DNA of 64,000 nt from an uncultured Flavobacteriales bacterium. GTDB taxonomy: Bacteria > Bacteroidota > Bacteroidia > AKYH767-A > 2013-40CM-41-45. The notes below the pieces were generated by a model, which made no database searches, was not told the DNA's origin, and was given only the letters and a program-made list of their open reading frames with translations. Below, one piece after another: positions 13,770-56,400 of this stretch. Where the stretch lies: contig CAYHHK010000001.1 of NCBI GenBank assembly GCA_964356415.1, positions 38,057-102,056 on the forward strand, written 5' to 3'. A program made the translations under genes and the position numbers. Numbering within the stretch: the first letter of the stretch is position 1; each line of letters begins with the position of its first letter.

Positions 13770-13881
13770 TGTTCAGTGAGTTGACATCAATTTGAAATTC
13801 GAAAATATTATATGGAGGTATGACCTCCTATATCATTTTCAATAAATATTTTCAAAGATGATGAAACTACACAACTCAAAA

Positions 13882-13897
13882 TATGACTTAGGTCATA
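13882..13897. promoter_or_regulatory. candidate operator palindrome TATGAC-N4-GTCATA in the promoter region of the U32-fdx-Mo-enzyme operon
   Basis: Perfect 6-bp inverted arms with a 4-bp spacer inside a 343-bp AT-rich intergenic region. A related half-site (tatgacc) sits in the nearby GGAGGT-cat-ACCTCC hairpin at 13815-13829. Confidence 0.25.
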
Positions 13898-14112
13898 AAT
13901 AGGCGTATGGAATCCCACTATTTTAGATTACAATACCGAGGATGTGAGTTTTAAAGAAAATATTGTTTGGATGAGGGTGTTATATCAGTCATTGTTTTTT
14001 GAAAAGCTCAATGTTGAAATTTATTGTCCTTAAATGGCTTTCAACCACAAGATAATTTTAAAAAACAATCTTAATAACATTCGACAATCAGCGATTTAGC
14101 TGTTGTATTTAT

Positions 14113-15024: not shown

Positions 15025-15149
15025 ATTATATTTTATTTTTATTTCCTTTTGCAATGTGACAATATTAGTCTTCTATTTTAATCGAAAGAATTCCTCGACT
15101 AGTCTTGCCTTAGGCGAGAACAGGCGGGGTGAATGATTTTTTTTCCAAT

Positions 15150-23012: not shown

Positions 23013-23330
23013 GATAATTTTAATTTGGTTTTGTGTAAAAATCAATCCTTTGATTGAATCCCGCTATGACATTAGTCACCTTTAGAAACGTTATTTTGGG
23101 ATAAACCCGAATTCCCGGTTTGACTTATCGCTTCAACATAAAGCATTGCATATCAACGGAATATAGAAAGACCATAGCCAATGGTATTTGATGATTTCCC
23201 CTGGATTGAGGTAAAAGATGAGGCATTGTCAATTCGAACGAAAAATCGAAAGACAGGCGGCAGAGATTCCGGAGTAAATTGTGATTTAAATGCTGTTAAA
23301 AAGAAACATCTTAGAATTTCGAAAAGATGG

Positions 23331-25307
23331 TTAATGAAGAGGTTGTACGACAAGCCGTCCTGTTATCAAATCCGTTTCAGATCGTAATTCATAGATATAG
23401 GCTCCGGGGCTGATTATTGCATCAACCGAAATAATATTTCTGCCATTGATAATTTTATGCCTGGATGATAGAACTTGTTCGCCGGGAATATTTCTGATGG
23501 TTATTTCGATGTCTGAATTCCGGTTGGCATATATTTCGAAATAAAATTGCCCGTCTGTAGGGTTTGGAAAAACTGTTGCTGGTAGAAATTTCAGATTCAT
23601 TGATATCGAAAGAAGTGACGGTGCCAGGTAAACCGGTTTTATAGATTCAATGCTATCACCAAAGTTGTTTTTCACCAGCAGGCGAAGCAAATAATTGCCC
23701 GGTGTTAATCCGTTTGTATTCCATATTCCAATGCTTGCATTACGAACTTCATTCAGTGAATCCAGGACAATAGGTGTCCATTGGGCTGTGCCAACTTTTT
23801 GATAAAACAAACTGTAGGTTCCAAAATCCATCCAGCTTCCTGCCGGACCATTGTCGATCCAGACTGAACCGGTAACGACAACGCTCGAATCAACGATACC
23901 TGTATCAGGCAGTGCAATGTTTTGCATCCATGCGATGGCCTGATCGTAAGCAACCGGATCCAGTACCAGTTTATTCTGAGCACAAATCATTACACTGCTT
24001 CCAATTGCAGAAGGTGCAGCAAATGGTAGCCAACTATATGCCAATAGAAAAATCCCATTCCTTTCGCTCCGCGTTGTAGAATAAACAGTAGCGCCGGTAG
24101 ATACAATAAAACTTGTATCTGTGGCCCAAAAATAGCCACCACTTCCATCCAGGAGAAAGTCATTGGCATTACATGTGGAGTGTTGTTGTGTTCCGACTTC
24201 GCCCAACTCGCAGTTGGATATTGCAATCATTGATGAATCAAAAACATATAAACTCCATGTTTGGACAGAAGTATTGATGAGGTGTAAATTCCTGTCAGGC
24301 AAGGGTGCGATGAAATTCGAATAATAAGAATTATCAAACAAGCCTGTAACGTTTACCGTATCGCCATATTGAAACCATGCGCCGATTGTACGCATTACGG
24401 AATTTGAAATGGTTACATCAGAGCCATTGACAGGCATCATTCCCCACCAAACTGTATGGCAGGAGTCAGCGAAAACTGTATAGCCGATTCCTGAGATACC
24501 GGGTGTATTATTGTTTAATGAATAATTAGTTACAGTGTCACCATCTGGAAAATCGAAATTGATAATAGCGCTGTCAGGGAAGTGGTGCCATAGTAATAGC
24601 GTATCGCAATTAGTAAAATTTGTGGTACAGGATGATGTTAGGATGTATTCTCCTGTCAGGTTGCAATTATTAATTGACAAAGTAGGTGCACCAAATAAGC
24701 CGCAGGTAGTAAAATCATTTTGATGAATATTGTCGAATATAACAATTGAGGAATCGGCGAGTAGCAAGTTGTGCGAATAGCCACTGTAATTAAAGCTCGA
24801 GTTTGAAATTAAGGCATAACCATTTTGAAGAACAAAAAATGAGCGTTGATAAAAATATTCCTGAGGGAAAAAGAAGGAGGTGGAGTCTGCCAGTAATTGT
24901 CCATTCCCAAATACATAGATATCCCCGGTATCAATGACTGTTGCATTGTCAAATATTAAAACCCCGTCATTCAATACCCATATTGGTCCTGTATGTGTCC
25001 AAAGACCTGTAATGATGACCGTATCGCTAGGAACATCTCCAACAACTAAAGTATCATTATTAAGGACAGCATCTTGAGAATGGAGTTTTAACCCTTGAGT
25101 CTGATATTGAAGTACATGATTCAACATCTGATAAGGGCTGCTCAGCACTTGAGGCACTGAATTATTTATGGGAAGAGTTTTTACGAAAGGAATTTGTTTA
25201 GTTGAATTATTTAGCGCGGCATTTATTTTCTGTTGAGGAAAAATAGTCTGTGCTGATGATATCATTATAGTAAAAACTACAAATGAGAGAAGAATTAGGT
25301 TTTTCAT
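23331..25307 (-). CDS. secreted T9SS cargo protein with a C-terminal Por sorting domain (function unknown, beta-rich)
   Basis: ATG at 25307 gives the signal peptide MKNLILLSFVVFTIMISSAQT. The C-terminus VFPNPTDGQFYFEI...GAYIYEL...GRLVV is a type-A T9SS CTD. Confidence 0.75.
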   Translation of the reverse strand: MKNLILLSFVVFTIMISSAQTIFPQQKINAALNNSTKQIPFVKTLPINNSVPQVLSSPYQMLNHVLQYQTQGLKLHSQDAVLNNDTLVVGDVPSDTVIITGLWTHTGPIWVLNDGVLIFDNATVIDTGDIYVFGNGQLLADSTSFFFPQEYFYQRSFFVLQNGYALISNSSFNYSGYSHNLLLADSSIVIFDNIHQNDFTTCGLFGAPTLSINNCNLTGEYILTSSCTTNFTNCDTLLLWHHFPDSAIINFDFPDGDTVTNYSLNNNTPGISGIGYTVFADSCHTVWWGMMPVNGSDVTISNSVMRTIGAWFQYGDTVNVTGLFDNSYYSNFIAPLPDRNLHLINTSVQTWSLYVFDSSMIAISNCELGEVGTQQHSTCNANDFLLDGSGGYFWATDTSFIVSTGATVYSTTRSERNGIFLLAYSWLPFAAPSAIGSSVMICAQNKLVLDPVAYDQAIAWMQNIALPDTGIVDSSVVVTGSVWIDNGPAGSWMDFGTYSLFYQKVGTAQWTPIVLDSLNEVRNASIGIWNTNGLTPGNYLLRLLVKNNFGDSIESIKPVYLAPSLLSISMNLKFLPATVFPNPTDGQFYFEIYANRNSDIEITIRNIPGEQVLSSRHKIINGRNIISVDAIISPGAYIYELRSETDLITGRLVVQPLH

Positions 25308-25450
25308 GGGTCGAGGAATAAAGTTACAGAATGAACTAATCAATATTACCGGTGTAATAATAGTTTTCAACCCGCAATTAAGAAATAGGTCTAGTGCTTT
25401 TCAGTAAGCGCGATCTGGCACTTAATAAGTACAAATCTATTGATTGATAC

Positions 25451-26797
25451 TCAACTAGGTCTCTCGCACCCTTTGCATTGATAAAATTTCCAATTAATCC
25501 ATGTTGCAATAATTGCGAAAGCAATCAAGCCATAAAAAAAATTTGTGGCATTGCCGGTTGCTCCAATCACCGCACCTATTATTATTGAGAAAATAAACGG
25601 GCCGTATGCAGCAACAGCAGCAGTCCATCCGATAACTCCTGCTGCCTGCCTTGGGTTGTGCTGGAAGATAATAGGATACTGACGAAAAGTTGCAGCGTTT
25701 CCGATTCCGGTGAAGAAGAATAATCCGAGCATCACTGCAACAAACATTGGAAATTGTTCCATGCTTGTTGGAGCAACCAATCCCATCGTGATCAGCATTG
25801 TGCAACCTATTATCAATCCTATTCCTGTTATGGTTGTAAGTATAGCACCACCAGTTTTATCAGATATAAAACCAAACAGCACACGGCTGGCAGAGCCAAT
25901 AAGTGGTCCGTAAAAAGCATATTTCAATGGGTCGGGTGCGCCTTCAAAATTTCCGTAAAGTGTTTTCATCAGCATTGGAAATGCAGCTGATAAGCCGGCA
26001 AAGGAACCGAATGTCATCACATATGTAATTGTACAGAACCAGGTATGTTTCTCTTTAAAAATATCCAACTGTTCTTTAAAGGATGCCTTGAGCGGAACAC
26101 TCCGTAAAAACCACCAGCATAAAATTGTCATGATGATGATAAGCGGAACATACCACAGTGCAGCATTCTGTAAATAAATTTGTGATGTGCCAAGGACGTC
26201 TTTTGTTTTAGGATCTACTTTTGTAAAAGTTTCAGAAGCACCACAGATGGCTATCCCAAGCAAAGCCGGAGTCATGAATTGGGCGAGACTTACCCCGAAA
26301 TTTCCAATGCCTGCCTGTATGCCAAGCGCAGTTCCTTTTAACCGTTTTGGAAAAAATAAATTTGTGCTTGGCATATAAGATGAAAAATCTCCTCCGCCAA
26401 ATCCACAGGTGAAAGCAAGAACCATAAAAACCCAGAACGGAGTTTCAGGATCCATCACTGCCAAACCAATACCGATACATGGAATTAATTTTATCAGTGT
26501 TGCAAATGTGATTACATGTCGTGTTCCATAAACCGGCAAAAGAAAAGTGTGAATGATGCGCAATGTTCCCCCTGCCAAGCCGGGCATTGCAGCAAGCCAG
26601 AACAACTGATTCGTCGTAAACTTAAAACCGATCCCCGGAAGTTTCACCACAATTGCACTCATCATAAACCAGGTTGCGAAAGACAATGTAAGGCTTATGG
26701 TTGTTACCGTAAGGGTACGCCATGCGGTTTTTCTGCCTTCCGATTCCCAAAAATAATTATCTTCAGGTTCCCATTTTTTCAGCCATGTTGTTTTCAT
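25451..26797 (-). CDS. narK: MFS nitrate/nitrite transporter NarK
   Basis: 12-TM MFS protein with NarK/NNP-family glycine-rich signature segments. ATG at 26797 (MKTTWLKKW...) starts 16 nt after the narK2 stop. Confidence 0.85.
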   Translation of the reverse strand: MKTTWLKKWEPEDNYFWESEGRKTAWRTLTVTTISLTLSFATWFMMSAIVVKLPGIGFKFTTNQLFWLAAMPGLAGGTLRIIHTFLLPVYGTRHVITFATLIKLIPCIGIGLAVMDPETPFWVFMVLAFTCGFGGGDFSSYMPSTNLFFPKRLKGTALGIQAGIGNFGVSLAQFMTPALLGIAICGASETFTKVDPKTKDVLGTSQIYLQNAALWYVPLIIIMTILCWWFLRSVPLKASFKEQLDIFKEKHTWFCTITYVMTFGSFAGLSAAFPMLMKTLYGNFEGAPDPLKYAFYGPLIGSASRVLFGFISDKTGGAILTTITGIGLIIGCTMLITMGLVAPTSMEQFPMFVAVMLGLFFFTGIGNAATFRQYPIIFQHNPRQAAGVIGWTAAVAAYGPFIFSIIIGAVIGATGNATNFFYGLIAFAIIATWINWKFYQCKGCERPS

Positions 26798-26813
26798 AAT
26801 TTTTGTTTGAATT

Positions 26814-28313
26814 TTAATGCACGTCGGTTGCCTCAATTTTGCCTTTTGTATGCGGGGCTGCTTCATCCCTCATGTGTGTAATAATATGGTGCATCCACCA
26901 CAAGCATAATATGGAAATTCCCCAGAGGAAAACCCACATGCTTGTCCACAATCCTGTTCCTTTAAGCATATAGCCAAAGATGATTGGAGAGAAAAATCCA
27001 CCCAATCCTCCGAGCACACCTACCATTCCTCCAACAGCTCCAACGTCATTGGGGAAGTAATTTGGAATGTGTTTGTAAACTGCAGCTTTTCCTATTCCCC
27101 AAACAATGCCAACTAAAAAAATAAGTATGGTTGCAATCCAGATGTTCGCCTGAAAATAGATATGTGTTGTTCCCTTTGCAATTAGCTGTTTCTTTTTTAC
27201 GATGTCGCCTGATACTACTGTGGCTACCTGCCAGTTTTTTTTCATGGGGAATAATGAAAACTCATCCTCTGAATGATAACGTTCTGGCTTCATGATGAGC
27301 GGGTAATTCATTCCATCAATACTTATCAGGCTGTCGGTAACTAGTGTAACCTTACCGGCTCTTTTGGCAAGAACACCTTCTCCCGGAGATTCAATTTCCA
27401 TTTGGGGTACAATAAGCAGGAAACACATAATGCAAGACGCAATGAAGATCCAATACATCACTTTTCTGGCTCCAAGTTTATCCGACATCCATCCGCCCAA
27501 GGCGCGAATTAACCCTGACGGCATGCTGAAGAGTGAGGCAAGCAATCCGGCAGTGACCAATGAAACAGAGTACATGTTGAGATAATATGGTACGAGCCAT
27601 TGCGAGAGCGCAACAAAACAACCAAACACGAGATAATAATATAATCCGAAACGCCACACACGTACTTGTTTCAGCGGTGCCAGCATCTTAATAAAACTTT
27701 TCCCCCTTGCGGTTTCCGAAATTTTATTTTTTGTGAAAAGCAGAAAAATAATTCCCATTATGATGAGTGCGACAGAATAAATTTGCGGGAGTTGCCTCCA
27801 GCCTTCAAGATTTGTTCCGTTGCCTGTAAGATTTTTTAATAGTGTTGGGGCAATAAGCGTTGTAATTCCGGCACCGAAATTTCCCATGCCGAATATACCG
27901 AGTGCGCGCCCCTGCCATTCTTTGGGGTACCACAGTGATGTGTATGCAATGCCAATTGAAAATCCAACCCCTGCAATTCCAAACCCGAAACTACACAAAG
28001 CGAACGCGGCAAAGCTGTTGGCGTAACTCACAAAGTACATGGGTATTGCGCAGAGAAAAAGTAATCCACCCATCATCCATTTGCCCCCATATTTATCCGT
28101 CCATATTCCTCCATGCAAACGGAAGATAGAACCACTCAAAACAGGAATGGCAAGCAGCCAGCCGATTTCTACCGGACTCCATTTGAAAATCTGATTGTCG
28201 ACAAGAAATGCAACGAGCACTCCATTGAACATCCACACTGCAAAGCAAACAGTGAACGCTAGCGTGTTTAGAAATAAAATACGGTGTGAAGTAGATGTTG
28301 CTTTTTGTTCCAT
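26814..28313 (-). CDS. narK: MFS nitrate/nitrite transporter NarK-type (second copy) with an ~85-aa hydrophilic insertion between TM9 and TM10
   Basis: 499 aa with an NNP-family topology. The insertion ...PQMEIESPGEGVLAKRAGKVTLVTDSLISIDGMNYPLIMKPERYHSEDEFSLFPMKKNWQVATVVSGDIVKKKQLIAKGTTHIYFQAN... is visible in the sequence. Confidence 0.8.
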   Translation of the reverse strand: MEQKATSTSHRILFLNTLAFTVCFAVWMFNGVLVAFLVDNQIFKWSPVEIGWLLAIPVLSGSIFRLHGGIWTDKYGGKWMMGGLLFLCAIPMYFVSYANSFAAFALCSFGFGIAGVGFSIGIAYTSLWYPKEWQGRALGIFGMGNFGAGITTLIAPTLLKNLTGNGTNLEGWRQLPQIYSVALIIMGIIFLLFTKNKISETARGKSFIKMLAPLKQVRVWRFGLYYYLVFGCFVALSQWLVPYYLNMYSVSLVTAGLLASLFSMPSGLIRALGGWMSDKLGARKVMYWIFIASCIMCFLLIVPQMEIESPGEGVLAKRAGKVTLVTDSLISIDGMNYPLIMKPERYHSEDEFSLFPMKKNWQVATVVSGDIVKKKQLIAKGTTHIYFQANIWIATILIFLVGIVWGIGKAAVYKHIPNYFPNDVGAVGGMVGVLGGLGGFFSPIIFGYMLKGTGLWTSMWVFLWGISILCLWWMHHIITHMRDEAAPHTKGKIEATDVH

Positions 28314-28319
28314 GATGAT

Positions 28320-28904
28320 TTATTTTCCATTAGCAATACGATCAAGAGTTTTATAAGATGATTTATAGTTCATCCAGATATAAACGGCCCAAACAATACC
28401 AAGTATTTGAATACCTGAATAGGCAAGGGCATTTGAAATATTTTCAAAAGAGTAGGTGCCGTTTATGACATTATAGTAAATAAAGAAAAAGGGAATACAG
28501 ATTGTTGCCGACAAAATACGAACCCAAGCCGTAAAGAATCTCCCGATACTTATAAGGAATAATGCGGGCAATAATGGCAAAATAATGGTCGCCATTTTAT
28601 CTTCATTGATGGCATTGAAGGCACTGGAAGCAAAAGAAACACCGTAGGCAATTCCTAAAAGAACGAAACCCGAAGGTACGATGTGTAATCCTTTTGTGCC
28701 GATGTATCTGCTTGCCAGAATGCTTGCCATTATTGCAGATGCATCGCCTATCTGCCAGCAAGACATTTGCCAAAAGCTTTCGGGCGGAAAAAAAGAACCT
28801 GTTAAACCCATTGCCAGGTTCAAAGCAAAACCGATGCTCATTAAAATTAACAGCAAGCACATTTCAGGATGGCTTTTCACTGCCGGATTATTTTTTTCTT
28901 TCAT
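28320..28904 (-). CDS. hypothetical integral membrane protein (5-6 TM)
   Basis: 194 aa, hydrophobic, with no recognisable motif. It is tightly packed downstream of narK2. Confidence 0.5.
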   Translation of the reverse strand: MKEKNNPAVKSHPEMCLLLILMSIGFALNLAMGLTGSFFPPESFWQMSCWQIGDASAIMASILASRYIGTKGLHIVPSGFVLLGIAYGVSFASSAFNAINEDKMATIILPLLPALFLISIGRFFTAWVRILSATICIPFFFIYYNVINGTYSFENISNALAYSGIQILGIVWAVYIWMNYKSSYKTLDRIANGK

Positions 28905-28986
28905 TCAGAAACATTTAAAGCAGCACTATCTTAATTGCAAACTGATACCTTATATCTTTCAGCACATTCTTACTTTATATTTTCCA

Positions 28987-30723
28987 TTATTTATTATCGA
29001 TTTTCAATACCTTAAGTAATCTCCGGCTGTTTTTATGGTTAAATACGATGAAATACATCCCATTGTCAAGTCCGGGTATTTCAATTTTATGCTTTCCGGC
29101 TGTATTGAATTCGAGCGCACCGGTAAAAATTAGTTTTCCGGTTACATCGGAGAGTTCGCAGCTTATTTTTCCGGCCATCGGAGCAGAAACAGCGAATTCA
29201 AGAAAGTGATTGAAAGGATTGGTAAGTATGGAAATAGTATTCAGCAGACTGTTCATTTCGTTCACACCCACATTCAATATAAAGACGTCTGATAAATACG
29301 TGCAGCCCAAATCATCGGTAAGCTCAACGGTATAGGAGCCATTTAATAAAGGCACATAGGTGCTTGCTGTTGCTCCGGAAATGGCAGTGTCATTCAGAAA
29401 CCACTGATAAGTTCCCGTTCCGGTGGTTTGCAGCAGCGATGCATTGCCCGTTATGTGCGGAACATTTGATTGGGTGATGTAACGTTTCATATTGTTATCA
29501 ATATCGCCTCCGCCAAAAAGCAATCTGTTATTTGGCAATTCAATTGCATCACCCACATAGTCGGAGCCGCCGGGATAAAGATCAATGCTAAGATATCCGT
29601 TGGTTGCAAATGCCGAATCAATGGCTCCGCTTGCCAGCAGTTGGGCAACGCTACCCACAACATTATTTGTTTTACCCATTACCATTATCTTTCCGCTGCT
29701 TAATACTTTTATTCCCCTGCATTCCATTGCTGTAAAAGTCAGGTTTACATGTCCGTTAATTCCGAAAGTAGTATCCAAAATTCCCGATGAAGTGAAGCGG
29801 ATAACTTCAATTCCTTCTGTATCCGGTTCGCGCGTGCAAGCCATTACAATTTTCTCATCGGATTGCATATCCATATATGCATCAGCATAAATATACTTGA
29901 GATTTACCGTATCGGTAAAAACACCTGCAACCGCAAACGTTGTGTCTAAGACGCCGGTCGAGTCAAAGCATACAGCCACAAAATGGGCATTGCTTCCTGC
30001 ATCAAGATAGCGCCCGGCAACAATAATATTTCCGTTCTGAAGCAGCCGCGCCCTTGCAGGGCAGTAAGAAGTATTGATAGCATAGCGCGTTTTTCCATCG
30101 GTGTCGAAGGTGGTGTCTAACGAACCATCACTCATAAAACGCATAGCTCCCATCCCGTGTACACCTCCATTTGCGTTGGCTGAACTCGTTCCCCCGCAGA
30201 GAATTCTGCCGTTCGCCATCGGGATAACGGTGTAAAAAGTTCCGGATGACACCAGGTCAAAGCGCAGCGCATGGGTTCCCGCGTTTGCAAAATTTGTATC
30301 CACGCTTCCGTCAGGATTGTAGCGTGCCACAAACGGTATCTGCTGCGAACCGGCATTACCCGGTGCCTGAATTCCTGCGCACAGGAATTTTCCATCAGCC
30401 TGGAGCGCATAATTACGTCCCATATTGCGCTGGTCAAAACGGTGACCTACAATGCCATTCATTCCGAATGCTGAGTCAATAAGCCCACATTGGTCGAAGC
30501 GTATCATGATGTTATGATAATAATAACTCGAATCGCTGTCGTATCCTCCGGCTACGATTTTTCCATCGGACTGCCGAAGAAAATTGGAGAAATCTTCTGA
30601 ACCGCCTGCATTTACTATCAGCGATGAATTGTGGCCGAACAACGAATCGGGAATCCAGGTTTGTGCAATGGTATTGCTAAACAGACATATTGATGCAATT
30701 AGTATAAGGCACAATGTTTTCAT
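28987..30723 (-). CDS. secreted repeat (delta-60/beta-propeller-like) protein with a T9SS C-terminal sorting domain
   Basis: Signal peptide MKTLCLILIASICLFSNTIAQ, repeated G-x-I/V-xxxG / DxxFG units, and a C-terminal CTD (...GMYFIVF...KVLKI). Confidence 0.7.
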   Translation of the reverse strand: MKTLCLILIASICLFSNTIAQTWIPDSLFGHNSSLIVNAGGSEDFSNFLRQSDGKIVAGGYDSDSSYYYHNIMIRFDQCGLIDSAFGMNGIVGHRFDQRNMGRNYALQADGKFLCAGIQAPGNAGSQQIPFVARYNPDGSVDTNFANAGTHALRFDLVSSGTFYTVIPMANGRILCGGTSSANANGGVHGMGAMRFMSDGSLDTTFDTDGKTRYAINTSYCPARARLLQNGNIIVAGRYLDAGSNAHFVAVCFDSTGVLDTTFAVAGVFTDTVNLKYIYADAYMDMQSDEKIVMACTREPDTEGIEVIRFTSSGILDTTFGINGHVNLTFTAMECRGIKVLSSGKIMVMGKTNNVVGSVAQLLASGAIDSAFATNGYLSIDLYPGGSDYVGDAIELPNNRLLFGGGDIDNNMKRYITQSNVPHITGNASLLQTTGTGTYQWFLNDTAISGATASTYVPLLNGSYTVELTDDLGCTYLSDVFILNVGVNEMNSLLNTISILTNPFNHFLEFAVSAPMAGKISCELSDVTGKLIFTGALEFNTAGKHKIEIPGLDNGMYFIVFNHKNSRRLLKVLKIDNK

Positions 30724-30732
30724 AATGTTAAA

Positions 30733-31689
30733 TTATTTATCCTTTTTCACCATCTCATCTAAGTAGTCGAGCATTAATCTTGAAAGACGGGAAATAAAAA
30801 TTTCATATCCACCATAATTCTTGCTCACAAATTCTTCTTTTTTCCCCAATACAATAAATGGTGTGTTGGTGTAATAGGACTGCCCGTCATAAAGCAGTCC
30901 CGTGCAATATGCCCTGCCCGGATAAATGCCACCTTCAACTTTTGGAACCGGATTTTGTCCGTAGAGATTAAGATGAAGCTCCGTAAAATCGTATCCTTTT
31001 TTTCCTACCACTTGTGATTTATTTGTAACCAGCAAAACTGCATCCACACCCAATCCTTTGGTAAGTTCTCCCATGCTTTGCATAAATTTATACTCCATTG
31101 GAAGTTCTGCAGGAATAAATCGAAATCCACCTGCAACTGCCGATAAGTTTTCCGACTTATTCAATATGCCTTTGAATATCCCTGAAACCTCAGGTTCAAA
31201 ATCGTTGTAGAATTTTTGTTTCTCGGGGGTATCTAAAAACTGGTCGGGCAACAATAGCTGAACACCCCTGTCGGAAAATGTTTTTACCAAGGAGTCTTTA
31301 CACTGAACAAAAAAATCAGTTGCCACTTTGCTAGCACCATCCTTTGTGAGATTTTTTGTGTAAGTAGTTGCATGTTCCACTTCGTAAAGACCAACACCGC
31401 TCGAACCAACAGCATATTCCTGAGTGGTATATCGTTTTACTTCGGTGAATGGTTTGTCGTAAACATAAAAAGTTACGAGCGCAATCCGCTTGGGAATTTG
31501 TCCGTTGAACGCCGGCCAATACGGGCCTGTTTGCCCTTTCTTGTCTCCCTTTGGAGGATGATTTTGAACGGCTGCTTTGCCAAATGACTTGTCGCTTGAT
31601 TTGGCAATTTCATCAAATGCACCTTGAGCATTTACCTTAATCACAAAGGCAAATGATATTGAAAATAACAATAAAAACCTGTGCAGCAT
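30733..31689 (-). CDS. hypothetical secreted/periplasmic protein
   Basis: 318 aa with signal peptide MLHRFLLLFSISFAFVIKVNAQ and no recognisable domain. Confidence 0.5.
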   Translation of the reverse strand: MLHRFLLLFSISFAFVIKVNAQGAFDEIAKSSDKSFGKAAVQNHPPKGDKKGQTGPYWPAFNGQIPKRIALVTFYVYDKPFTEVKRYTTQEYAVGSSGVGLYEVEHATTYTKNLTKDGASKVATDFFVQCKDSLVKTFSDRGVQLLLPDQFLDTPEKQKFYNDFEPEVSGIFKGILNKSENLSAVAGGFRFIPAELPMEYKFMQSMGELTKGLGVDAVLLVTNKSQVVGKKGYDFTELHLNLYGQNPVPKVEGGIYPGRAYCTGLLYDGQSYYTNTPFIVLGKKEEFVSKNYGGYEIFISRLSRLMLDYLDEMVKKDK

Positions 31690-31787
31690 TTTGAAGTATT
31701 TTTTAATTCTTATCGTTTAATTCTTATCGATTGATTTTATTTTCATGCTGTTACACAATGAATGATATTGACCTTTCGTTTTAGCAT

Positions 31788-32420
31788 CTACAAGTCATAT
31801 CGAAATATCGGATCAATGTCGTCAGCTGAGTTTAGTCTGTAGTCAAGGTCTTTGATCAGGCCGGTGGTGCAGTCAAAAACCCAGGAATGAATCTGAAGGG
31901 AGCTGTTTTTCCATGCCCGCTGCACAATCCGCGTTTTCGCAAGGTTGTTAGTCTGTTCTATTACGTTCAACTCGACCAGTCGATTTTCCCTTTTTTTAAT
32001 ATCCTTTATTTTCTCAAGCAATTTTCGATGTTTCGCATATACCTCTTTAATGCTTCTGAGCCAGTTATTCACAAAACCAAAATCTTTATTTTGCATGGCT
32101 GCATTTACTCCGCCACAAGCATAATGGCCACAAACAATCACATGCTTTATATGCAGGATATCCACTGCGAAATATAGTACACTGAGCAAATTCATATCCG
32201 TTTGTATTACCACGTTGGCAATGTTACGATGAACAAAAATTTCTCCCGGACGGGTTTTTGTAACTTCATTCGCTGGCACCCGGCTATCAGAACAACCAAT
32301 CCAAAGGTATTCCGGTGATTGTCCTTTTGAGAGTTTGTTGAAGAAGTCAGCATCCTCTTTTCGCTTTAGGGCAGACCACTCACGATTGTTTCTTAATAGT
32401 TTTTGTGAACTGTCATTCAT
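31788..32420 (-). CDS. beta-class carbonic anhydrase
   Basis: Zinc-ligand motifs CSDSR and HxxCGG (HYACGG) at the expected spacing. Confidence 0.85.
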   Translation of the reverse strand: MNDSSQKLLRNNREWSALKRKEDADFFNKLSKGQSPEYLWIGCSDSRVPANEVTKTRPGEIFVHRNIANVVIQTDMNLLSVLYFAVDILHIKHVIVCGHYACGGVNAAMQNKDFGFVNNWLRSIKEVYAKHRKLLEKIKDIKKRENRLVELNVIEQTNNLAKTRIVQRAWKNSSLQIHSWVFDCTTGLIKDLDYRLNSADDIDPIFRYDL

Positions 32421-32445
32421 CTATTGTAATATTGAAGTTGCCTGC

Positions 32446-32895
32446 TCATGGGGCAGGTCTTTTAAAATCAATCCTGCCTTTATCCGGATGTTGTTTTGAA
32501 TAGCGCACAAAATATTTTCCTCCGGGAACAACAATACTATCCTTTGAGATGGGATGAAAAGTATTGCAATTGCTATAGCTGACACCGTCTGCTTCATATT
32601 GAAATTCAACGCCTTCACCTCGAGCAAATGCATCGCAATAGCCTGATGTAATTCCGGTGGTGTATTGAGGATTTTTCAGCAGTGATGCTTCCTCACGGTA
32701 TTCATTGAAAACAAGAATTAATGCAGAAGAAAGGAGCAGGAGAAGGGAAGAGTTGATTGCGAGCCTTATTTTTGACTCACTGCGGAAAATTCTGAATGCA
32801 TTGTAAATAATTCCTGCGCTTAAGACAACGAGAAGAATTGTTTTTACGATTTGACTTGTGAGCAATTCTTCATCGGTAACAATCTTCAGCAACAT
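32446..32895 (-). CDS. hypothetical membrane-anchored protein tightly coupled to narI
   Basis: 149 aa with two N-terminal TM helices and a soluble C-terminal domain. Its start is 3 nt after the narI stop. Confidence 0.5.
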   Translation of the reverse strand: MLLKIVTDEELLTSQIVKTILLVVLSAGIIYNAFRIFRSESKIRLAINSSLLLLLSSALILVFNEYREEASLLKNPQYTTGITSGYCDAFARGEGVEFQYEADGVSYSNCNTFHPISKDSIVVPGGKYFVRYSKQHPDKGRIDFKRPAP

Positions 32896-32898
32896 GGA

Positions 32899-33627
32899 TT
32901 AGTTATTTTTTGGACGATGTAAAGACCATGGAGTGCGGGGACTGCGTACTTTTCTTCTGTCCCAATACCAACGAACCTGCTGAAATGGACGCCAGATGTA
33001 ATTGAATGGCGGTACCAGAAAGTGAACCATTCGGGAGAAAGGAATGAGACCAATAATTGCAAATGCGCCAATGATGTGCAGTTTTACTGTCCATGGTAAT
33101 GGCACAATGGCTGCAATTTCAGGCTGAAGGGTAAAAATGGAGTAGAGGTAAGGAGTAAGCAGTGATGAAAACCATGATGAACCCCAGCGGAAATTATACG
33201 CAATCCACAAGCCAATCACGGTTTGAAAAATCAACAGCAGGTACACTACCAAGTCCATCCTGTTGGTAACGAATTTCAAGCGGGGAGTGGTATAGCGTCT
33301 GATTAAAAGGTTGACCAAACCAGTCAGCATGCTGATTCCGAAAATGAATGCCGTAATTTCCAGAATCATTAAACGGATTGGCTGACTGTTCCAGGCAAGC
33401 ACTCCATGCGGAAACATGAATGCAATAAGATGGCCGCAGAATAGCACAATCACTCCCCAGTGGAAAGGTACTGAACCGTAAAATAGTTTTCTTCCTTCAA
33501 GAAACTGTGAAGAGAGTGATGAGAACTGAAATCCTTTGTAAGTGTAGCGGTAGATTGAACCAACTAAAAAAACAGCGAGCGCCATGTATGGCAGCGCAAT
33601 AAGGAAGAAGTTGTCAAGTGCATTCAT
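32899..33627 (-). CDS. narI: respiratory nitrate reductase gamma subunit NarI (di-heme cytochrome b)
   Basis: 242 aa with 5 TM helices and conserved heme-ligand His residues (HWGVIVLFCGH; HIIGAF..HFLVPPF). Confidence 0.9.
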   Translation of the reverse strand: MNALDNFFLIALPYMALAVFLVGSIYRYTYKGFQFSSLSSQFLEGRKLFYGSVPFHWGVIVLFCGHLIAFMFPHGVLAWNSQPIRLMILEITAFIFGISMLTGLVNLLIRRYTTPRLKFVTNRMDLVVYLLLIFQTVIGLWIAYNFRWGSSWFSSLLTPYLYSIFTLQPEIAAIVPLPWTVKLHIIGAFAIIGLIPFSRMVHFLVPPFNYIWRPFQQVRWYWDRRKVRSPRTPWSLHRPKNN

Positions 33628-33652
33628 AGCTCAATTTTTATTTTGGTTTAAT

Positions 33653-34450
33653 TTATTTTTCCTTTTCAATGATTAATTCTATTTCAATATTTTGTTTAAA
33701 ATCTTTATCGGAAGTTATTCCGGAAGGTGCCTGATCAGTCTGGCAAGAGCATGGATCTTGAGAATCCTCGCAGCCGGTTACATGAACGTTGTCAGTAACA
33801 ACTGTATCGTAACCAAAGTCCTCTTTCATTACAATTAGTAAGGCCTGCAGCAAGGTGAAATATACAGCCCTGTATTGTTGTGAGAATTCCAATAGCACTT
33901 TATGATGCTTTTTGTAGATCTCATCTTTCTTTTTAATCTTTTCCTCTGCGAACTCACTTGTCATCTTAATAATGGCCGACATTACCAAACGGGTGGCAAT
34001 TTCATTGCGCATTGCTTCATCTTTCATTTTCGGAAGGAGCCGGAGCACATTGGGTAAATGATCCGATAATTCAGTGTGGCAAATATTTCCTGCTTCACGG
34101 TGCTCGCGGTTGAGATTTACAAGTAGTTGTCCGCGCTTGTAATCTTCTCCAAAAAGAATAAAGCCAATGTCAAGGGTAGTGATAGCCTGCACATCAAATG
34201 AACGAAGATAAAGCTCCTGCATATCAGTCAATGTTGCCGCATCAAGGAACTCCATAAATAAGTTCATGGCATCCGATGCCTTGGGCGAGTGAACTGATAG
34301 ATATTGATGAATTGCCTTGATTTTTTCTTTGTGAGAGTCTGCTTCAGGATAAATAAAAAGATCAGCAAGCAATTCATAATTGCTAATGGCAACAGGATGG
34401 GGTTCTGTATGCGTTGATTTATTATCCTCTTTGTCCAATACTGATTCCAT
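33653..34450 (-). CDS. narJ: nitrate reductase Moco-assembly chaperone NarJ (TorD family)
   Basis: 265 aa acidic helical TorD/NarJ-like protein in the narH-narI interval. Confidence 0.7.
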   Translation of the reverse strand: MESVLDKEDNKSTHTEPHPVAISNYELLADLFIYPEADSHKEKIKAIHQYLSVHSPKASDAMNLFMEFLDAATLTDMQELYLRSFDVQAITTLDIGFILFGEDYKRGQLLVNLNREHREAGNICHTELSDHLPNVLRLLPKMKDEAMRNEIATRLVMSAIIKMTSEFAEEKIKKKDEIYKKHHKVLLEFSQQYRAVYFTLLQALLIVMKEDFGYDTVVTDNVHVTGCEDSQDPCSCQTDQAPSGITSDKDFKQNIEIELIIEKEK

Positions 34451-34461: not shown

Positions 34462-35184
34462 TTAATTGTTCATTGCCAATTCCATCTCAATTGCTTTCGG
34501 AAACAGGATATTGTTTTCCAGGTGTATATGCTGGTGTAAATCATTTTCAAACTCCTGCAATTTTGCATACGAATATCTGAAGCTATTACATGCATCTTCA
34601 GGAACAGTATAGTTGTTGGTTATTTTTCTTATTTCATTCATTAGAAGCCCAACCATCTCATGCTCATCTTCCATCATGCTTACCGGATTGGCCACTGTGC
34701 CGAATGGCGATTGTATTACCTGACCTGTTTTTTTTGATTCAGCTAGTTTTTTAATGTACGGAAAAAGAACCTGCTCCTCTTTCATCATGTGTTGATTTAA
34801 TTCATCCATTACCTTCACAAACAGACTTGCAGCTTCAATAACTTCAGGATGCTGATGTCCATGAACTCGGGCAACTTTTTGTGTGTATTCAAAAATTGGA
34901 GCCATTGCCTGCACCACATATTTGTGATGAGTCTGGATTATGTAATCTGCTAAAAAATTTAAATCCCATGTATTAAAATCTTGTGACGGAAGTTTGGTGG
35001 AAATTTCTGCCTGATGTAATTCTTTCTCTAATTGTTCCTGGCTGATTCCTTTTTCACGGCAGACTTTGGACAACGATTTCTTTCCTCCGCAACAGAAATC
35101 AATTCCATACTTTTTAAATACTTCTACTTTACGGTAATCCTTGGCTGCTATTTCTCCTACCGAAATTTCTTTTATCATGTTCAT
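34462..35184 (-). CDS. ytfE: iron-sulfur cluster repair di-iron protein RIC (YtfE/ScdA family)
   Basis: N-terminal ScdA_N motif (YGIDFCCGG) followed by a hemerythrin-like di-iron domain with H..E/HxxxE motifs. Confidence 0.85.
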   Translation of the reverse strand: MNMIKEISVGEIAAKDYRKVEVFKKYGIDFCCGGKKSLSKVCREKGISQEQLEKELHQAEISTKLPSQDFNTWDLNFLADYIIQTHHKYVVQAMAPIFEYTQKVARVHGHQHPEVIEAASLFVKVMDELNQHMMKEEQVLFPYIKKLAESKKTGQVIQSPFGTVANPVSMMEDEHEMVGLLMNEIRKITNNYTVPEDACNSFRYSYAKLQEFENDLHQHIHLENNILFPKAIEMELAMNN

Positions 35185-35204: not shown

Positions 35205-36755
35205 TTATATACCTCTTCTTACTTTACTTTTAATTCCAAATCCGATTTCACCTTTGGCATCACCTGTGAAGTCCATCATTTCAATGGCTTGCTCGCGGTG
35301 CGCGGGCGGGATTACAAAACGGTCTTCAAACTTAGCCAGTGCAGTAAGATAGAATATGCCATCGGCCATTTCAGCAGTAATGCCAGCTTCCCGCAATGCT
35401 TCATCAGCTTTCTCATCGCTTACATCTCCGACAGTTACTCTTCTTCTGTGAATGCGGACAGCCATCAGTTTTTTCCATTTGTCTTTGATTTTTTCTTCAT
35501 CGCCTGCGCTTAATAAGTTTGCGAGGTATTTCAATGGAAAGCGAACCTGGTCGAGTGTTCCCCATAAATCCTTTGTACTTGTATCATAGAGCCAGTTATC
35601 GTCCCAGTATTTTGCGATCGGGTTCATCTTTCCGGCTTGTGCAGAGTTGTCAACTTGTTTAACTGTAGCCATCACAGGTAACAGAGGTGGTACATAAAAA
35701 AGCATTGGCAGCGTACGGAATTCGGCATGTAGTGGTAGTGCAAGTTTCCATTGTTTGACGTACTTGTATACCGGTGAGAATTGAGCCGCATGAATTGTTG
35801 AATCTGCAACGCCATTCATTTTTGCGGCGCGAATAACTTTTTCATCAAACGGATCAAGAATAATATCAAGATGGCGGTCAATCAGATTTTTCTCATCATC
35901 ATTAATTGCAGATTCAATTTTTGATGCATCATAGAGGAGTACACCAAGGTAGCGGATACGACCAACGCACGAGTGCATGCATGCCGGTGCCAGCCCTGCT
36001 TCAAGGCGCGGAAAGCAAAGGATACATTTCTCGGATTTTCCTGTATGCCAATTGTAATAAGATTTTTTATAAGGGCATGCAGTCACACACATTCTCCATG
36101 CACGGCAAACTTCCTGATTGATAAGCACAACACCATCTTCACCGCGTTTATAGAGCGCACCTGATGGACAAGAAGCAACACAGGCCGGATTCAGGCAATG
36201 ATTGCAGATTCTTGGTAAATAGAAGAATGCCATTCTTTCCAGCTGAAACATTACCTCCTGTTCAGCAGCAGAAAGATTTTTTAGATTTGGGTCGTTGCGG
36301 CCAAAATCCGGTGTTCCGCTCAAGTCATCATCCCAGTTTGGTCCCATTTTAATATCAATAGGTTCCCCGGTGATAAGAGATACAGGCCGTGCCGTCGGCT
36401 GATCATTGCCTTCAGGCGCTTCAATAAGATCAAGATACTTGTAAGTAAACGGCTCGTAATAGTCGTCAATTACCGGCATACTCGGATTGTAAAAGATATT
36501 TGTAAGTCCTCGTCTCTTGCCGGCTCCTTTTAGGGATACTTTCCCATTCTCCTTTTGCCATCCGCCCCTATAAATGCTTTGGTCTTCCCATTTTGTAGGG
36601 TAGCCGGTACCGGGCTTTGTTTCGACATTGTTCCACCACATATATTCTGCGCCTTTCCTGTCAGTCCAGATATTCTTACATGCTACTGAGCAAGTGTGAC
36701 AGCCAATACATTTATCGAGGTGAAATACCATTGATATTTGTGAACGAACATCCAT
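35205..36755 (-). CDS. narH: respiratory nitrate reductase beta subunit NarH
   Basis: 516 aa with four Cys clusters (CIGCHTCSVAC; CNHCLNPACVASC; CRAWRMCVTACPY; CILCFPR...) that are diagnostic of NarH. Confidence 0.95.
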   Translation of the reverse strand: MDVRSQISMVFHLDKCIGCHTCSVACKNIWTDRKGAEYMWWNNVETKPGTGYPTKWEDQSIYRGGWQKENGKVSLKGAGKRRGLTNIFYNPSMPVIDDYYEPFTYKYLDLIEAPEGNDQPTARPVSLITGEPIDIKMGPNWDDDLSGTPDFGRNDPNLKNLSAAEQEVMFQLERMAFFYLPRICNHCLNPACVASCPSGALYKRGEDGVVLINQEVCRAWRMCVTACPYKKSYYNWHTGKSEKCILCFPRLEAGLAPACMHSCVGRIRYLGVLLYDASKIESAINDDEKNLIDRHLDIILDPFDEKVIRAAKMNGVADSTIHAAQFSPVYKYVKQWKLALPLHAEFRTLPMLFYVPPLLPVMATVKQVDNSAQAGKMNPIAKYWDDNWLYDTSTKDLWGTLDQVRFPLKYLANLLSAGDEEKIKDKWKKLMAVRIHRRRVTVGDVSDEKADEALREAGITAEMADGIFYLTALAKFEDRFVIPPAHREQAIEMMDFTGDAKGEIGFGIKSKVRRGI

Positions 36756-36794: not shown

Positions 36795-39700
36795 CTACCA
36801 AACAAGTTTTTCCATTTTCTTGACAATTACGTGGGTATCACGCTGTGGTGCAATTGGTCCCCAATAATTGAAATGGTAGGAGAACTGACCATAGCCGCCA
36901 CTCAGGTAATTTGGTTTTAGATGTGTACGGGTTACACTGTTATGACCACCACCGCGACGGTTTCCTCTTAACTGAGATTTTGGAATTCCAACCGTTCTCT
37001 CCGGCACGTGATAAACGATGCAACTTCCGGGTGCAATCCTTGAACTTACACATGCACGTGTAACATACACACCGTGGTCATTGTGAACTTCTACCCAGTC
37101 ATTATCCTTAATGCCAAGAATTTCGGCATCTTTCTCACTAAGCCAGCAAGGTTCGCAGCCGCGTGATAGTGTCAACATACGAATATTTTCCATATAGGTA
37201 GAGTGGATGTGCCATTTACCGTGCGGAGTCAGGTAATTAAGTGCAAGGGCTTTTCCGTTCTTCCAGGTTTCACGTAAATCGCCATAAACTTCAGGCCGCG
37301 GTGCCGGTTTGTATGTTGGCAGATGCTCGCCATGAGCAATATATAATTCATGGTCAAGGTAAAAATGCTGCCTGCCGGTAAGTGTTCTCCATGGAACCAA
37401 TCTTTCCACATTGTAAGTATATGCTGAATATGCTCTGCCATCATTCATGAGCCCTGACCACAGAGGAGAAGTGTTATACCTGCGTGGCTGAGCTGCCAAA
37501 TCCTGATATCGAAGTTTCACATCTTTGCTTCCTTCACCGAGGTCGGCAAGCTGAAGACCTGTTTTCTTCTCCATGTTTTTATACGCCTGAACATTCAGTT
37601 TTCCATTAGTAAGTGTGGAAAGGTGCAGCACTGCATTTGCGGCCCATTCATCTTCCTGAATAGAAGGAAGTGTTTTACCATTGTATTTTCTCTGATGGAA
37701 ATGATTGGAAGAACACATTTCATCATATTCCTCCTTGCAGAAGTAGTGATTGCCATGAGCACCTAACCCTTTTTCACGTATGCCTTCTCCGAGTGTAATG
37801 AACTTCTCGTAGATTTGGGTATAATCCCTTTCAATAACTGTGAATTTTGGCATTGTTTTTCCAGGAATCGCTTCACATTCACCTTTATACCAGTCCTTAA
37901 TTGAAGGCTGCGAAATTTCGTCTGCTGAGTCATGAGAGAGTGGAGTCATAACGACATCTTTATGCACTCCCGGAAAATACTTTTTAGCCATTTCGCTTGT
38001 GGCTTTTGCAAGGTGCTTAAAAATATCCCAATCTGTTTTTGATTCCCAAACCGGAGCAACTGCCTGACCAAGCGGATGAATAAAGGAATGCATATCCGTG
38101 CTGTTCAGATCAGTTTTTTCATACCATGATGCAGCCGGAAGCACGATATCTGAATAAAGCGCCGATGAGTCCATGCGGAAATTTAAATCCACAACCAAAT
38201 CCATTTTCCCTTCAGGTGCAATTTCATGCCACACAACTTCCTCTGTATGCTCATCAGAATCCTTTCCTATTGAATTGTGGTGGGTGCCTAGATAATGCTT
38301 GAATGCATACTCATGTCCTTTCATACTTCCTGTAATGGCATTACCACGCCATATATACCAAACGCGCGGGAAATTTTCTTCGGCATCAGGGTCATTGATT
38401 GCAAATTTTAATTTTCGTGACTTGAGGTCATCAACAATTCGCTTGATTACATCGGCGTCGGTTTGGGCACCGTCTGCTTCAGCCTCTTTTACAACATCAA
38501 GCGGGTTTTTGTTGAACTGTGGGTAATATGGCATCCATCCATTTCTGACAGAGGTGAAAATACTGTCTGCCGTATGTTTACGGGTAAGTTCATTATCAGG
38601 AACAGCATTGTAATGTGAATGGCGGCCATCATAACGATATTGGCAGGTATTGATATAATGCCAGAGCGGAGCCTGCTGCAGTCTGGCTTGCGGAACCCAA
38701 TCCTTTGCAAAGGTGATTCCACCCCAGGAATCAACCGGTGCAAGTTTTTCTTGTCCAACGTAGTGATTGAGACCCCCGCCATTTTTTCCAAAGCAACCTG
38801 TTAGTGCAATGGTCATGGCTGCTGAACGATAAATTAAATTTGCATGGTACCAGTGGTTGATACCGGCACCAACAATCACCATGCATTTGCCTTTGGTTGT
38901 CTCGGCCGTGTTTCCCCATTCATGAGCAAACTGGATAACTGTTTTTGAATCAATCCCTGTAAAAACTTCCTGCCAGGCAGGAGTATAGGAAGAGTCTTTG
39001 TCTGTATAATCTTTTGGATAATTTCCAACTAGTCCACGGTCAACTCCATATTGACCCATTAACAAATCATAAATGGTTGCTACAGGAACTTTTCCATTTA
39101 CAGTATCAAGGTATTTTACCGGAACACCTCGCAAAAACTTATTATCCAAACCATATTCGATAAATTCTGTCTGCAAAACACCATCATTCTTTTTCAGGTT
39201 GGTGAGAACAGGGTCGTAATTCTTTTCAGTCTCCCCACATTCATATTTCATATTCCATTTTCCACCTGCTTTGTCCCAACGGTATCCCATGGTACCTTTT
39301 GGCACAATGAGTTCTCCTGTTTTTTCATCGATATTCAGGAATTTCCAGTCCCCATTTTCAATATCTTTCCATTTTGAAATTTCATTGGCTCGAACCAATC
39401 TTCCGGGCTTGAAATGATCTCCGTCTTTTTCAAGATGTACGAGGAACGGACTATCAGTATACTGTTTTGTATATTCAATGAAATATGGAACCTGTTTTTC
39501 GTGATGGAACTCTTTTAAAATGATGTGTGTGACTGCCATCCAGAAAGCATTGTCAGTGCCGGGATGTACTGGCACCCACTGGTCAGCATATTTACAAACC
39601 TGGCTGAAGTCAGGAGAGAACACAACTGCTTTTGTTCCATTATGGCGCGACTCTGCAAAGAAGTGACAATCGGGTGTGCGGGTCATATTGAGGCACGCAC

Positions 39701-40412
39701 CCATGTCTGCAATCAGTTTTGAATTATACCAATCGGCGCTCTCACATACATCAGTTTGTTCTCCCCACATTTCAGGGAAATGGGTTGGTAAATCGCAATA
39801 CCAATCATAGAAACTTAGATTAAATCCACCGAATAATTGCAGGAATCGGGCACCGGCTGCATAACTCAGCATTGACATTGCGGGGATAGGGGAGAATCCG
39901 GCAACGCGATCCGGTCCATGTTTTTTTGCAGTATAAATATTTGCTGCTGCCATTATTTCCAGTACTTCATCCCACGAAGTCCTTCTGAAGCCGCCTTTGC
40001 CTCTCGATTTTTGATAGCGCTTGCGTTTCTCTTTATTGTTCTGAAGATTTTCCCAAGCCTTCACCGGGTCGCCGCCGGTTTTTTCTTTTTCCTCTCTGAA
40101 TAAATCCAGAAGCGTACCGCGAATGAGCGGATATTTAATGCGTAGTGGGCTGTACAAATACCAGGAATATGAAATTCCGCGTTGACACCCACGGGGTTCA
40201 TAAGGTGGGAGAGATTCCTCCAGTAAAGGATAATCAAGTTGTTGTGTCTCCCAAACAACGATTCCATCCTTCACATGAATTTGCCAAGAGCAACCACCAG
40301 TGCAGTTTACACCGTGTGTACTCCTGACAATGCGGTCGTGCTGGAAACGGTTGCGATAAAACTCCTCCCACTGGCGTGTTTTTGGCGAAATAATGTCTTC
40401 AATCCAACTCAT
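36795..40412 (-). CDS. narG: respiratory nitrate reductase alpha subunit NarG (cytoplasm-facing, no Tat signal)
   Basis: 1205 aa with the FS0 ligand motif [18 protein letters not shown] (H-x3-C-x3-C). The N-terminus [11 protein letters not shown] has no RR motif. Confidence 0.95.
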
Positions 40413-48557: not shown

Positions 48558-48559
48558 TG

Positions 48560-49660: not shown

Positions 49661-49664
49661 TGTT

Positions 49665-50852: not shown

Positions 50853-50858
50853 GAAGGT

Positions 50859-51968: not shown

Positions 51969-51970
51969 AA

Positions 51971-56399: not shown

Positions 56400-56400
56400 A

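Follow-up and report, generated by a model that had tools for sequence, protein, structure and literature searches.

A respiratory nitrate reductase (nar) operon in a 64-kb window of DNA from an uncultured Flavobacteriales bacterium (contig CAYHHK010000001.1; "the window" denotes this entire stretch) encodes, immediately after narI, a membrane protein of 149 amino acids (aa) that we call ORF149 (ORF, open reading frame). We found that ORF149 is strictly syntenic with narI and start-stop coupled to it, that it has a single origin without loss, and that it is under purifying selection; these properties are directly supported, as is its predicted architecture. From them we infer, at about even chances, that ORF149 is an accessory membrane subunit beside NarI in a cytochrome-c-containing (NarC-type) nitrate reductase. 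An earlier note on this DNA had proposed three co-oriented genes as candidate new Nar-associated components, namely ORF149, a beta-class carbonic anhydrase and a secreted protein of 318 aa (ORF318). That proposal is supported for ORF149 and not for the other two. What is new here is a clade of nar operons defined by an extra, unannotated membrane protein coupled to narI; the carbonic anhydrase is an already known enzyme.

Association of ORF149 with narI

ORF149 has 91 clusters of homologues at 49-77% identity, nearly all of them exactly 149 aa long, and those that carry a name are called hypothetical proteins. A genome scan with one genome per GTDB species returned 45 ORF149 loci, and in all 45 the homologue lies immediately downstream of narI. 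The gap between the narI stop and the ORF149 start is 1-6 nucleotides (nt) in 33 of the 45, with gaps of 12-314 nt found mainly in the Saprospiraceae. In the window, the narI stop codon is TAA, ORF149 starts 3 nt beyond it and both ORFs share a frame. Across the 45 genome loci the common operon order is cytochrome(s) c, narG, narH, narJ, narI and ORF149, usually followed by one or more genes for narK-like transporters of the major facilitator superfamily (MFS) and by a hemerythrin gene.

The reverse test, in which a NarI profile was run against metagenome contigs, yielded 80 loci. ORF149 follows narI in 36 of these, and one more carries a truncated copy. Among the 30 metagenome loci with a NarI at least 65% identical to that of the window, 29 have it, and at lower NarI identity it occurs in 5 of 8 (62-65%), 2 of 14 (60-62%) and 0 of 24 (55-60%). 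Where ORF149 is absent, narK begins 10-80 nt after narI. At the locus with the truncated copy (L057, 700-1300), narI is followed by the first 13 ORF149 codons and then, abruptly, by unrelated GC-rich sequence, which indicates a chimeric contig, probably an assembly chimera. In a search for NarI homologues, all of the matches listed (the best 120) were at least 64% identical.

A neighbour-joining tree of 111 distinct NarI sequences, comprising 74 from ORF149-positive and 37 from ORF149-negative operons (L133 not included), places all 74 positive operons in one pure clade with the 37 negatives outside it. Parsimony requires a single change on this tree, and thus one gain and zero losses. Co-occurrence with nar, which the earlier note had named as a check on its proposal, therefore proved very strong for ORF149: the gene lies directly after narI wherever the context is readable.

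The association is with narI rather than with narK, because the downstream gene varies while the upstream partner is always narI. In most operons the gene after ORF149 is narK. Instead of it, L016 and L018 have a hemerythrin gene, L134 has a small one and L008 has an outer-membrane-channel-like gene. In L131, where ORF149 is 35% identical and narI 57% identical to their window counterparts, ORF149 is followed by MoeA, MobA and MoaC. Every family member that bears the N-terminal motif described below and has a readable context directly follows narI, including those in L131, L133 and L134. By the standard of conserved synteny that we applied to nar operon components (adjacent to narI and nowhere else), ORF149 thus qualifies.

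Metagenome-assembled genomes labelled Bifidobacteriaceae (L029), Thermoanaerobaculia (L036) and Ignavibacteria (L019) contain the ORF149-bearing operon; L029 looks like a mis-binned contig, and the operons of L036 and L019 could reflect horizontal transfer. In L134 a 366-aa beta-propeller-like gene (2632-3732), with faint matches to YNCE, lactonase and cytochrome d1, lies between narJ and narI.

The pattern of codon conservation points to the protein as the object of selection. In codons 5-22, the most conserved stretch of ORF149, third positions have an entropy of 0.5-2 bits and first and second positions are nearly fixed. Because third positions vary while the amino acids stay fixed, the target of selection is the protein rather than an RNA or DNA element. 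Together with the 91 clusters of homologues, this marks ORF149 as a genuine coding sequence and no chance ORF. In profile searches of Pfam, NCBIfam, PHROGs and PDB sequences ORF149 had no match, and it belongs to no known family. Structure prediction with AlphaFold2 from an alignment of 31 sequences reached a predicted local distance difference test (pLDDT) score of 84.9. The predicted fold consists of helices at residues 4-38 and 42-74, arranged as a hairpin, followed by five beta strands within residues 77-147. A Foldseek search with this model returned weak OB-fold matches, among them the DUF2500 chain 3q6c and 3rd4.

Among 68 distinct family members, L11, G81, C87, F98, C110 and P115 are invariant, and half of the members have no cysteine other than C87 and C110. 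These two cysteines, spaced 22 residues apart, are part of neither a CxxC nor a CxxCH motif. The N-terminus is the most conserved segment (M-L-L-N-I-V-T-D-[DE]-[EQ]-L-L-T-S-Q-I-V-K), and its acidic motif, IVTD[DE][EQ]LL.SQ.VK, is near-invariant in the nar-linked subfamily. Averaged over the family, net charge is -2.5 in the N-terminal tail, +4.2 in the loop between the helices and about 0 in the segment after the second transmembrane (TM) helix. The positive-inside rule states that basic loops of membrane proteins are cytoplasmic; applied to ORF149, it would place the basic loop in the cytoplasm and leave the N-terminal tail and the beta domain facing the periplasm.

More distant relatives place this subfamily in a wider setting. 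A profile search of 1.84 billion representative sequences found 120 relatives of ORF149 at E <= 1e-3, 23 of them at E <= 1e-30. The weaker matches fall into two groups: proteins of 100-155 aa with the same plan of TM segments plus a beta domain, some with the Cys pair, and large repeat proteins that align over a short beta-hairpin stretch only. The small distant relatives lack the N-terminal motif, and the three of them whose contexts were read lie away from nar, one by FabH, one in an island of helicase, patatin, KAP-NTPase and RadC genes and one by an acetyltransferase. The one named family against which ORF149 could be judged is not reached: against DUF3592 (PF12158, gathering score 25.3 bits), ORF149 of the window had no match at E <= 10, and the scores of 1 of 31 family members (E = 0.019) and of the distant relative P0320 (E = 0.0045, 18.1 bits) are both below threshold. 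We regard the nar-linked ORF149 proteins as one specialised branch within a loosely related set of small membrane proteins that lacks annotation, and on these comparisons the N-terminal motif is the mark of the nar-specific branch.

The nar locus and the slot after ORF149

All genes of the nar region lie on the minus strand and are listed in the order of transcription.

41362-41934, minus strand: mono-haem c-type cytochrome, 190 aa, one CxxCH; Pfam Cytochrom_C, signal-like N-terminus, C-terminal TM anchor
40434-41300, minus strand: di-haem c-type cytochrome, 288 aa, two CxxCH; Pfam Cytochrom_C, signal-like N-terminus, C-terminal TM anchor
36795-40412, minus strand: narG (family assignment)
35205-36755, minus strand: narH (family assignment)
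34462-35184, minus strand: RIC/YtfE di-iron repair protein (TIGR03652, 251 bits)
33653-34450, minus strand: narJ-like chaperone, 265 aa (NCBIfam narJ 51.8, below the cutoff of 59.35)
32899-33627, minus strand: narI, dihaem b membrane subunit of respiratory nitrate reductase (PF02665 Nitrate_red_gam, 7e-59; TIGR00351, 120 bits, cutoff 105.6)
32446-32895, minus strand: ORF149, 149-aa membrane protein (no family; two hydrophobic segments)
31788-32420, minus strand: beta-class (Can-type) carbonic anhydrase, 210 aa (Pro_CA, 4e-54)
30733-31689, minus strand: ORF318, 318 aa (no family; signal-peptide-like N-terminus, read by eye)
28987-30723, minus strand: delta-60-repeat (DUF5122) cargo protein of the type IX secretion system (T9SS), 578 aa (TIGR02608, 1.5e-50; TIGR04183, 25.9 bits, cutoff 23)
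28320-28904, minus strand: o194, multi-pass membrane protein (no family)
26814-28313, minus strand: MFS transporter, narK-like (MFS_1, 7e-41)
25451-26866, minus strand: second narK-like MFS transporter (family assignment)
23331-25370, minus strand: second T9SS protein (family assignment)
22335-23045, minus strand: hemerythrin-HHE-domain protein (family assignment)

The gaps from narI through ORF149, the carbonic anhydrase and ORF318 to the T9SS gene are 3, 25, 98 and 9 nt, and o194 ends 6 nt before narK. The earlier note was correct in its coordinates, in the 3-nt spacing between narI and ORF149, in the CSDSR and HxxCGG motifs of the carbonic anhydrase and in the co-orientation of these genes before the T9SS gene. 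A scan of 28000-33700 for promoters and terminators found sites no more numerous than in shuffled sequence, with a sigma-70 consensus that is unsuited to Bacteroidota, and the 98-nt spacer between the carbonic anhydrase gene and ORF318 folds no better than its shuffles. Within that spacer, a 14-nt unit (TTTAATTCTTATCG, plus strand) is repeated 2.9 times at 31702-31740 and could be a regulatory site or an insertion scar.

Two anchored c-type cytochromes lie upstream of narG in every related genome locus that extends that far. The 288-aa protein of the window is an anchored periplasmic dihaem cytochrome c at the 5' end of the operon, the defining feature of the NarC type as judged by architecture and not by sequence homology to NarC. 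Taken as a whole, the operon belongs to a known kind, that of the NarC-type respiratory nitrate reductases.

Several of its genes show features of their own. The narJ-like protein has a C-terminal extension of about 100 residues with a Cys-rich patch (TGCEDSQDPCSCQ). The RIC/YtfE gene, which lies between narH and narJ in the window, has a homologue between narG and narH in four Saprospiraceae loci (L031, L038, L043 and L044) and is missing from most related loci; it is plausibly a further optional insert that guards against nitric oxide damage. Most related operons also retain the hemerythrin-domain gene after their narK genes. T9SS cargo genes are scattered in and around the nar cluster (28987-30723, 23331-25370 and 49665-50852, all minus strand), and a delta-60-repeat gene lies inside the nar operons of both closest relatives, L133 (65% identical) and L134 (85% over 225 aa). 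The retention of secreted repeat proteins within a respiratory operon is odd.

The carbonic anhydrase is readily classified. It scores 183.5 bits against Pro_CA (PF00484; cutoff 25.7), with residues 38-188 covering profile positions 1-155 of 156, and its zinc-site motifs, C43-S-D45-S-R47 and H99-Y-A-C102 (followed by G-G), align with the same motifs in 1ddz. Solved beta-carbonic anhydrases match it at E-values from 1e-121 to about 1e-63, including the Porphyridium tandem enzyme (1e-121), E. coli Can (1i6o, 2.4e-65) and 2a8c (about 1e-63). Its score of 243 bits against the Can equivalog NF007756/PRK10437 lies below the cutoff of 251. By these profile matches the 210-aa protein is a standard type II (Can-like) beta-carbonic anhydrase, close to Can and not a formal equivalog. 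Like E. coli Can (YadF) and Haemophilus influenzae HICA, with which it aligns end to end, it has the ordinary form of the enzyme; unlike the usual can gene, it is found within a nar operon.

Its place there is not conserved. A carbonic anhydrase gene occupies the slot between ORF149 and narK in four operons: those of the window, L133 (84% identical), L029 (73%) and L037 (68%). This amounts to 2 of the 45 genome loci (L029 and L037) and none of the 80 metagenome loci, plus L133, so the association with nar mostly fails for this gene, which has confident homology to housekeeping Can-type enzymes. It falls short of the conserved synteny shown by ORF149. The operons of the window, L029 and L037 fall on separate sub-branches of the NarI tree, and the nearest neighbours of each lack the gene. 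By its distribution, then, the carbonic anhydrase is a sporadic occupant of a variable slot and not a conserved Nar component.

It may nevertheless be of some local benefit, presumably modest, through proton and bicarbonate balance during nitrate reduction. A stronger version of this idea, which we consider rather unlikely, is that selection maintains the carbonic anhydrase, where it occurs, as an accessory to nitrate respiration, supplying or removing protons and bicarbonate while nitrate reduction uses up protons in the cytoplasm. In all four operons the gene fills the identical slot, immediately following ORF149 with gaps of 24-50 nt to its neighbours. The three more distant copies have diverged in parallel with NarI: the proteins of the window, L029 and L037 are roughly equidistant (68-73%), similar to their NarI (79-83%). 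This parallel is compatible both with an ancient gene lost many times and with repeated gain, and an old accessory that is often lost may have more functional relevance than the word "passenger" suggests, a point that weighs against our view of the gene as a sporadic occupant. However, it is present in only 4 of about 85 ORF149-positive operons with readable downstream sequence and is missing from the slot in the near relatives L001, L012 and L134. The enzyme is of the standard Can type with no special features, and the slot also gathers plainly unrelated genes, namely T9SS cargo, ORF318 and o194.

ORF318 shows still less of a connection to nitrate respiration. It has three other homologues among 5.8 billion proteins, at 60-81% identity. 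One of them (P0094, 61% identical) is flanked by a CorA gene and by a T9SS/DUF5122 gene in convergent orientation, with SpoIIE adjacent, on a 7-kb contig with no nar genes; another, 76% identical, comes from a 2.3-kb contig with no resemblance to the window beyond ORF318. The gene is found in 0 of the 125 related nar loci (45 genome and 80 metagenome loci), nor is it in L133 or L134. L133 is the closest related nar operon and has narI (95% identical), ORF149, the carbonic anhydrase, the T9SS delta-60 gene (65%) and narK (89%). There, only 30 nt separate the carbonic anhydrase gene from the T9SS gene, so both ORF318 and o194 are absent. In L001, with a NarG that is 95% identical, ORF149 and narK are separated by 146 nt. 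With one homologue away from nar and the closest operon lacking the gene, ORF318 does not co-occur with nar and is not conserved in synteny with it.

The earlier description of ORF318 as a protein of unknown fold remains apt. It matched nothing in profile searches against PDB, Pfam, NCBIfam or PHROGs, and the AlphaFold2 model, from a 4-sequence alignment, has a pLDDT of 41.9 and is unusable. ORF318 has no Por_Secre_tail-type domain and is thus not T9SS cargo by the sorting-domain criterion; its 578-aa neighbour does carry the T9SS type A sorting domain (TIGR04183). This delta-60/DUF5122 T9SS protein is the only recurring neighbour of ORF318, in two contexts, which is a weak hint that ORF318 is linked to it and not to Nar. 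The membrane protein o194 has no match in Pfam, NCBIfam or PHROGs and no tblastn match in the 125 related loci. Judged by this distribution, ORF318 and o194 are a recent, lineage-specific insertion in a variable slot, with no demonstrable tie to nitrate respiration.

Molybdenum-cofactor genes are concentrated around the nar region, as genes for hydantoinase A/B, a xanthine-dehydrogenase-family molybdoenzyme with its flavin adenine dinucleotide subunit, a MoaC-MoaB fusion, an XdhC-like protein and a MobA-like protein flank the nar cluster (3107-15054 and 44311-45769, minus strand). The earlier suggestion that the carbonic anhydrase supplies bicarbonate to carboxylase-type hydantoinase enzymes finds no positional support, since the hydantoinase genes (3107-6956) are some 25 kb away, beyond molybdenum-cofactor and xanthine-dehydrogenase-family genes. 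A further group of genes (53230-58149 and 45766-53233, minus strand) encodes a BcrAD/BadFG ATPase fused to a ketopantoate-reductase-like domain, an HGD-D dehydratase/reductase component, an AMP-dependent ligase, a thiolase, enoyl-CoA hydratases and a 3-hydroxyacyl-CoA dehydrogenase. By gene content the region 45766-58149 looks like a cluster for anaerobic degradation of aromatic or alicyclic acids.

Proposed role of ORF149

Our data are consistent with a model in which ORF149, with its start 1-6 nt past the narI stop, is translated in step with NarI and inserts into the membrane as a hairpin of two helices whose basic loop faces the cytoplasm. The hairpin and the N-terminal tail would pack against NarI, making ORF149 an extra subunit of the complex. 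The tail and the small beta domain would then lie at the periplasmic face, by the NarI quinol site and the membrane-anchored cytochromes c, where ORF149 might serve in cytochrome docking or in stability. We advance more tentatively, as possible rather than probable, a specific form of this model in which ORF149 is a stoichiometric and hitherto unrecognised subunit of the Bacteroidota/Ignavibacteria-type Nar, with the OB-like domain and the Cys pair forming a docking or ligand site that couples NarI to the cytochromes c.

Several observations weigh against an accessory subunit. In the 37 distinct sister operons identified by NarI, narI runs straight to narK without ORF149, which implies that this type of enzyme can work without it. 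No NarI residue separates ORF149-positive from ORF149-negative operons (present in at least 90% of one set and at most 10% of the other), and thus there is no sign of a co-adapted surface. The topology assigned to ORF149 derives solely from the positive-inside rule.

The same synteny and coupling data would also fit the main rival explanation, in which ORF149 is a transient biogenesis factor for NarI or the anchored cytochromes c, active in membrane insertion, haem loading or thiol chemistry and absent from the mature enzyme. We judge this unlikely, although it has points in its favour: the invariant Cys pair, which would lie in the periplasm, would suit redox or ligand chemistry, nar operons already encode a dedicated chaperone in NarJ, and in Thermus the loss of NarC or NarI blocks both maturation and membrane attachment (PMC7694296), which shows that this type of enzyme is demanding to assemble. 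However, start-stop coupling over 1-6 nt suggests that ORF149 and NarI are made in equal amounts, as subunits more typically are, and the wide spacing of the cysteines, with no CxxC or CxxCH motif, argues against a biogenesis factor, as does the assembly of the enzyme in sister operons that lack ORF149. The position of ORF149 between narI and narK in most operons, together with a beta domain that would face the periplasm, might instead indicate a part in nitrate or nitrite transport or sensing, either by modulating the NarK-type MFS transporter or by reporting periplasmic nitrate or nitrite through the beta domain. This seems quite improbable to us, because ORF149 stays with narI where the next gene is not narK (L131, L016, L018 and L134), its spacing to narK is variable, and with a cytoplasmic loop of only about 10 residues it has no cytoplasmic output domain.

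It is very improbable that ORF149 is a hitch-hiker with no role in nitrate respiration, fixed once by narI and kept since because disruption of the operon is costly. Such a history would agree with the distant relatives in unrelated contexts and with the sister nar operons that lack the gene, but it accords poorly with zero losses in 74 distinct operon lineages despite frequent turnover of the adjacent slot, and with strong purifying selection that extends to the subfamily-specific N-terminal motif. We continue to favour an accessory subunit beside NarI. Never lost in the 74 operon lineages and coupled to narI, ORF149 is, by this comparative evidence, very likely needed for Nar function in the organisms that carry it.

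Wastewater, soils and sediments harbour abundant nitrate reducers from the Bacteroidota (Chitinophagaceae, Saprospiraceae and Sphingobacteriales) and the Ignavibacteria, whose Nar has nevertheless been modelled on E. coli NarGHI. If ORF149 is indeed a stoichiometric subunit, these enzymes would represent a new class of Nar complex, distinguished in structure by a periplasmic electron-transfer branch. The protein is now annotated merely as "hypothetical"; naming it would provide a cleaner metagenome marker for this operon clade and a reason to look at how cytochrome-c-containing Nar complexes are built. Our negative results are of use as well, in that they keep the carbonic anhydrase and ORF318 from spreading through annotation as Nar components. 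Our work should thus help in annotating environmental nitrate reducers.

Comparison with known systems

No published description of ORF149 was found in the literature that we searched, coverage of which was incomplete, so that this is weak evidence of novelty. In architecture, ORF149 resembles DUF3592 (PF12158) and DUF2500 (PF10694), two uncharacterised families of small, membrane-anchored proteins, which likewise combine one or more TM segments with a small beta-barrel and share the pattern G.T....F.Y..dG..Y ... VPgGkY.VrY....P..gr. Unlike those families, the nar-linked ORF149 adds the near-invariant acidic N-terminal tail and the invariant Cys pair.

Small conserved proteins tied to a NarC-type nar operon are also known from Thermus, in which DrpA and DrpB, encoded downstream of the operon, have been linked to nitrate respiration (PMC6282519). 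The former is soluble, contains DUF2249 and has no TM segment, and the latter is a peripheral membrane protein of 273 aa (PMC6282519). An identity of ORF149 with DrpA or DrpB was rejected on architecture, as ORF149 has two TM helices and no DUF2249 match. By analogy, the hemerythrin-domain gene of the window (22335-23045) may be a counterpart of the hemerythrin-linked Drp-type regulators of Thermus (PMC6282519).

The closest known parallel to the operon as a whole is narCGHJIKT of Thermus thermophilus, which encodes the heterotetramer NarCGHI. Both have a cytoplasm-facing NarGHI, one or more genes for anchored periplasmic cytochromes c upstream of narG and MFS transporters downstream of narI (PMC7694296). 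As described, the Thermus operon passes from narI to narK with no gene in between, unlike that of the window. Its fourth subunit, NarC, is a dihaem cytochrome c, bound to the membrane on the periplasmic side, that interacts with NarI (PMC7694296), whereas ORF149, which has no CxxCH motif, is not a cytochrome. Nonetheless, the Thermus enzyme has an operon-encoded, membrane-associated subunit beyond NarG, NarH and NarI, and thus provides a precedent for an extra subunit of the kind that we propose for ORF149 (PMC7694296).

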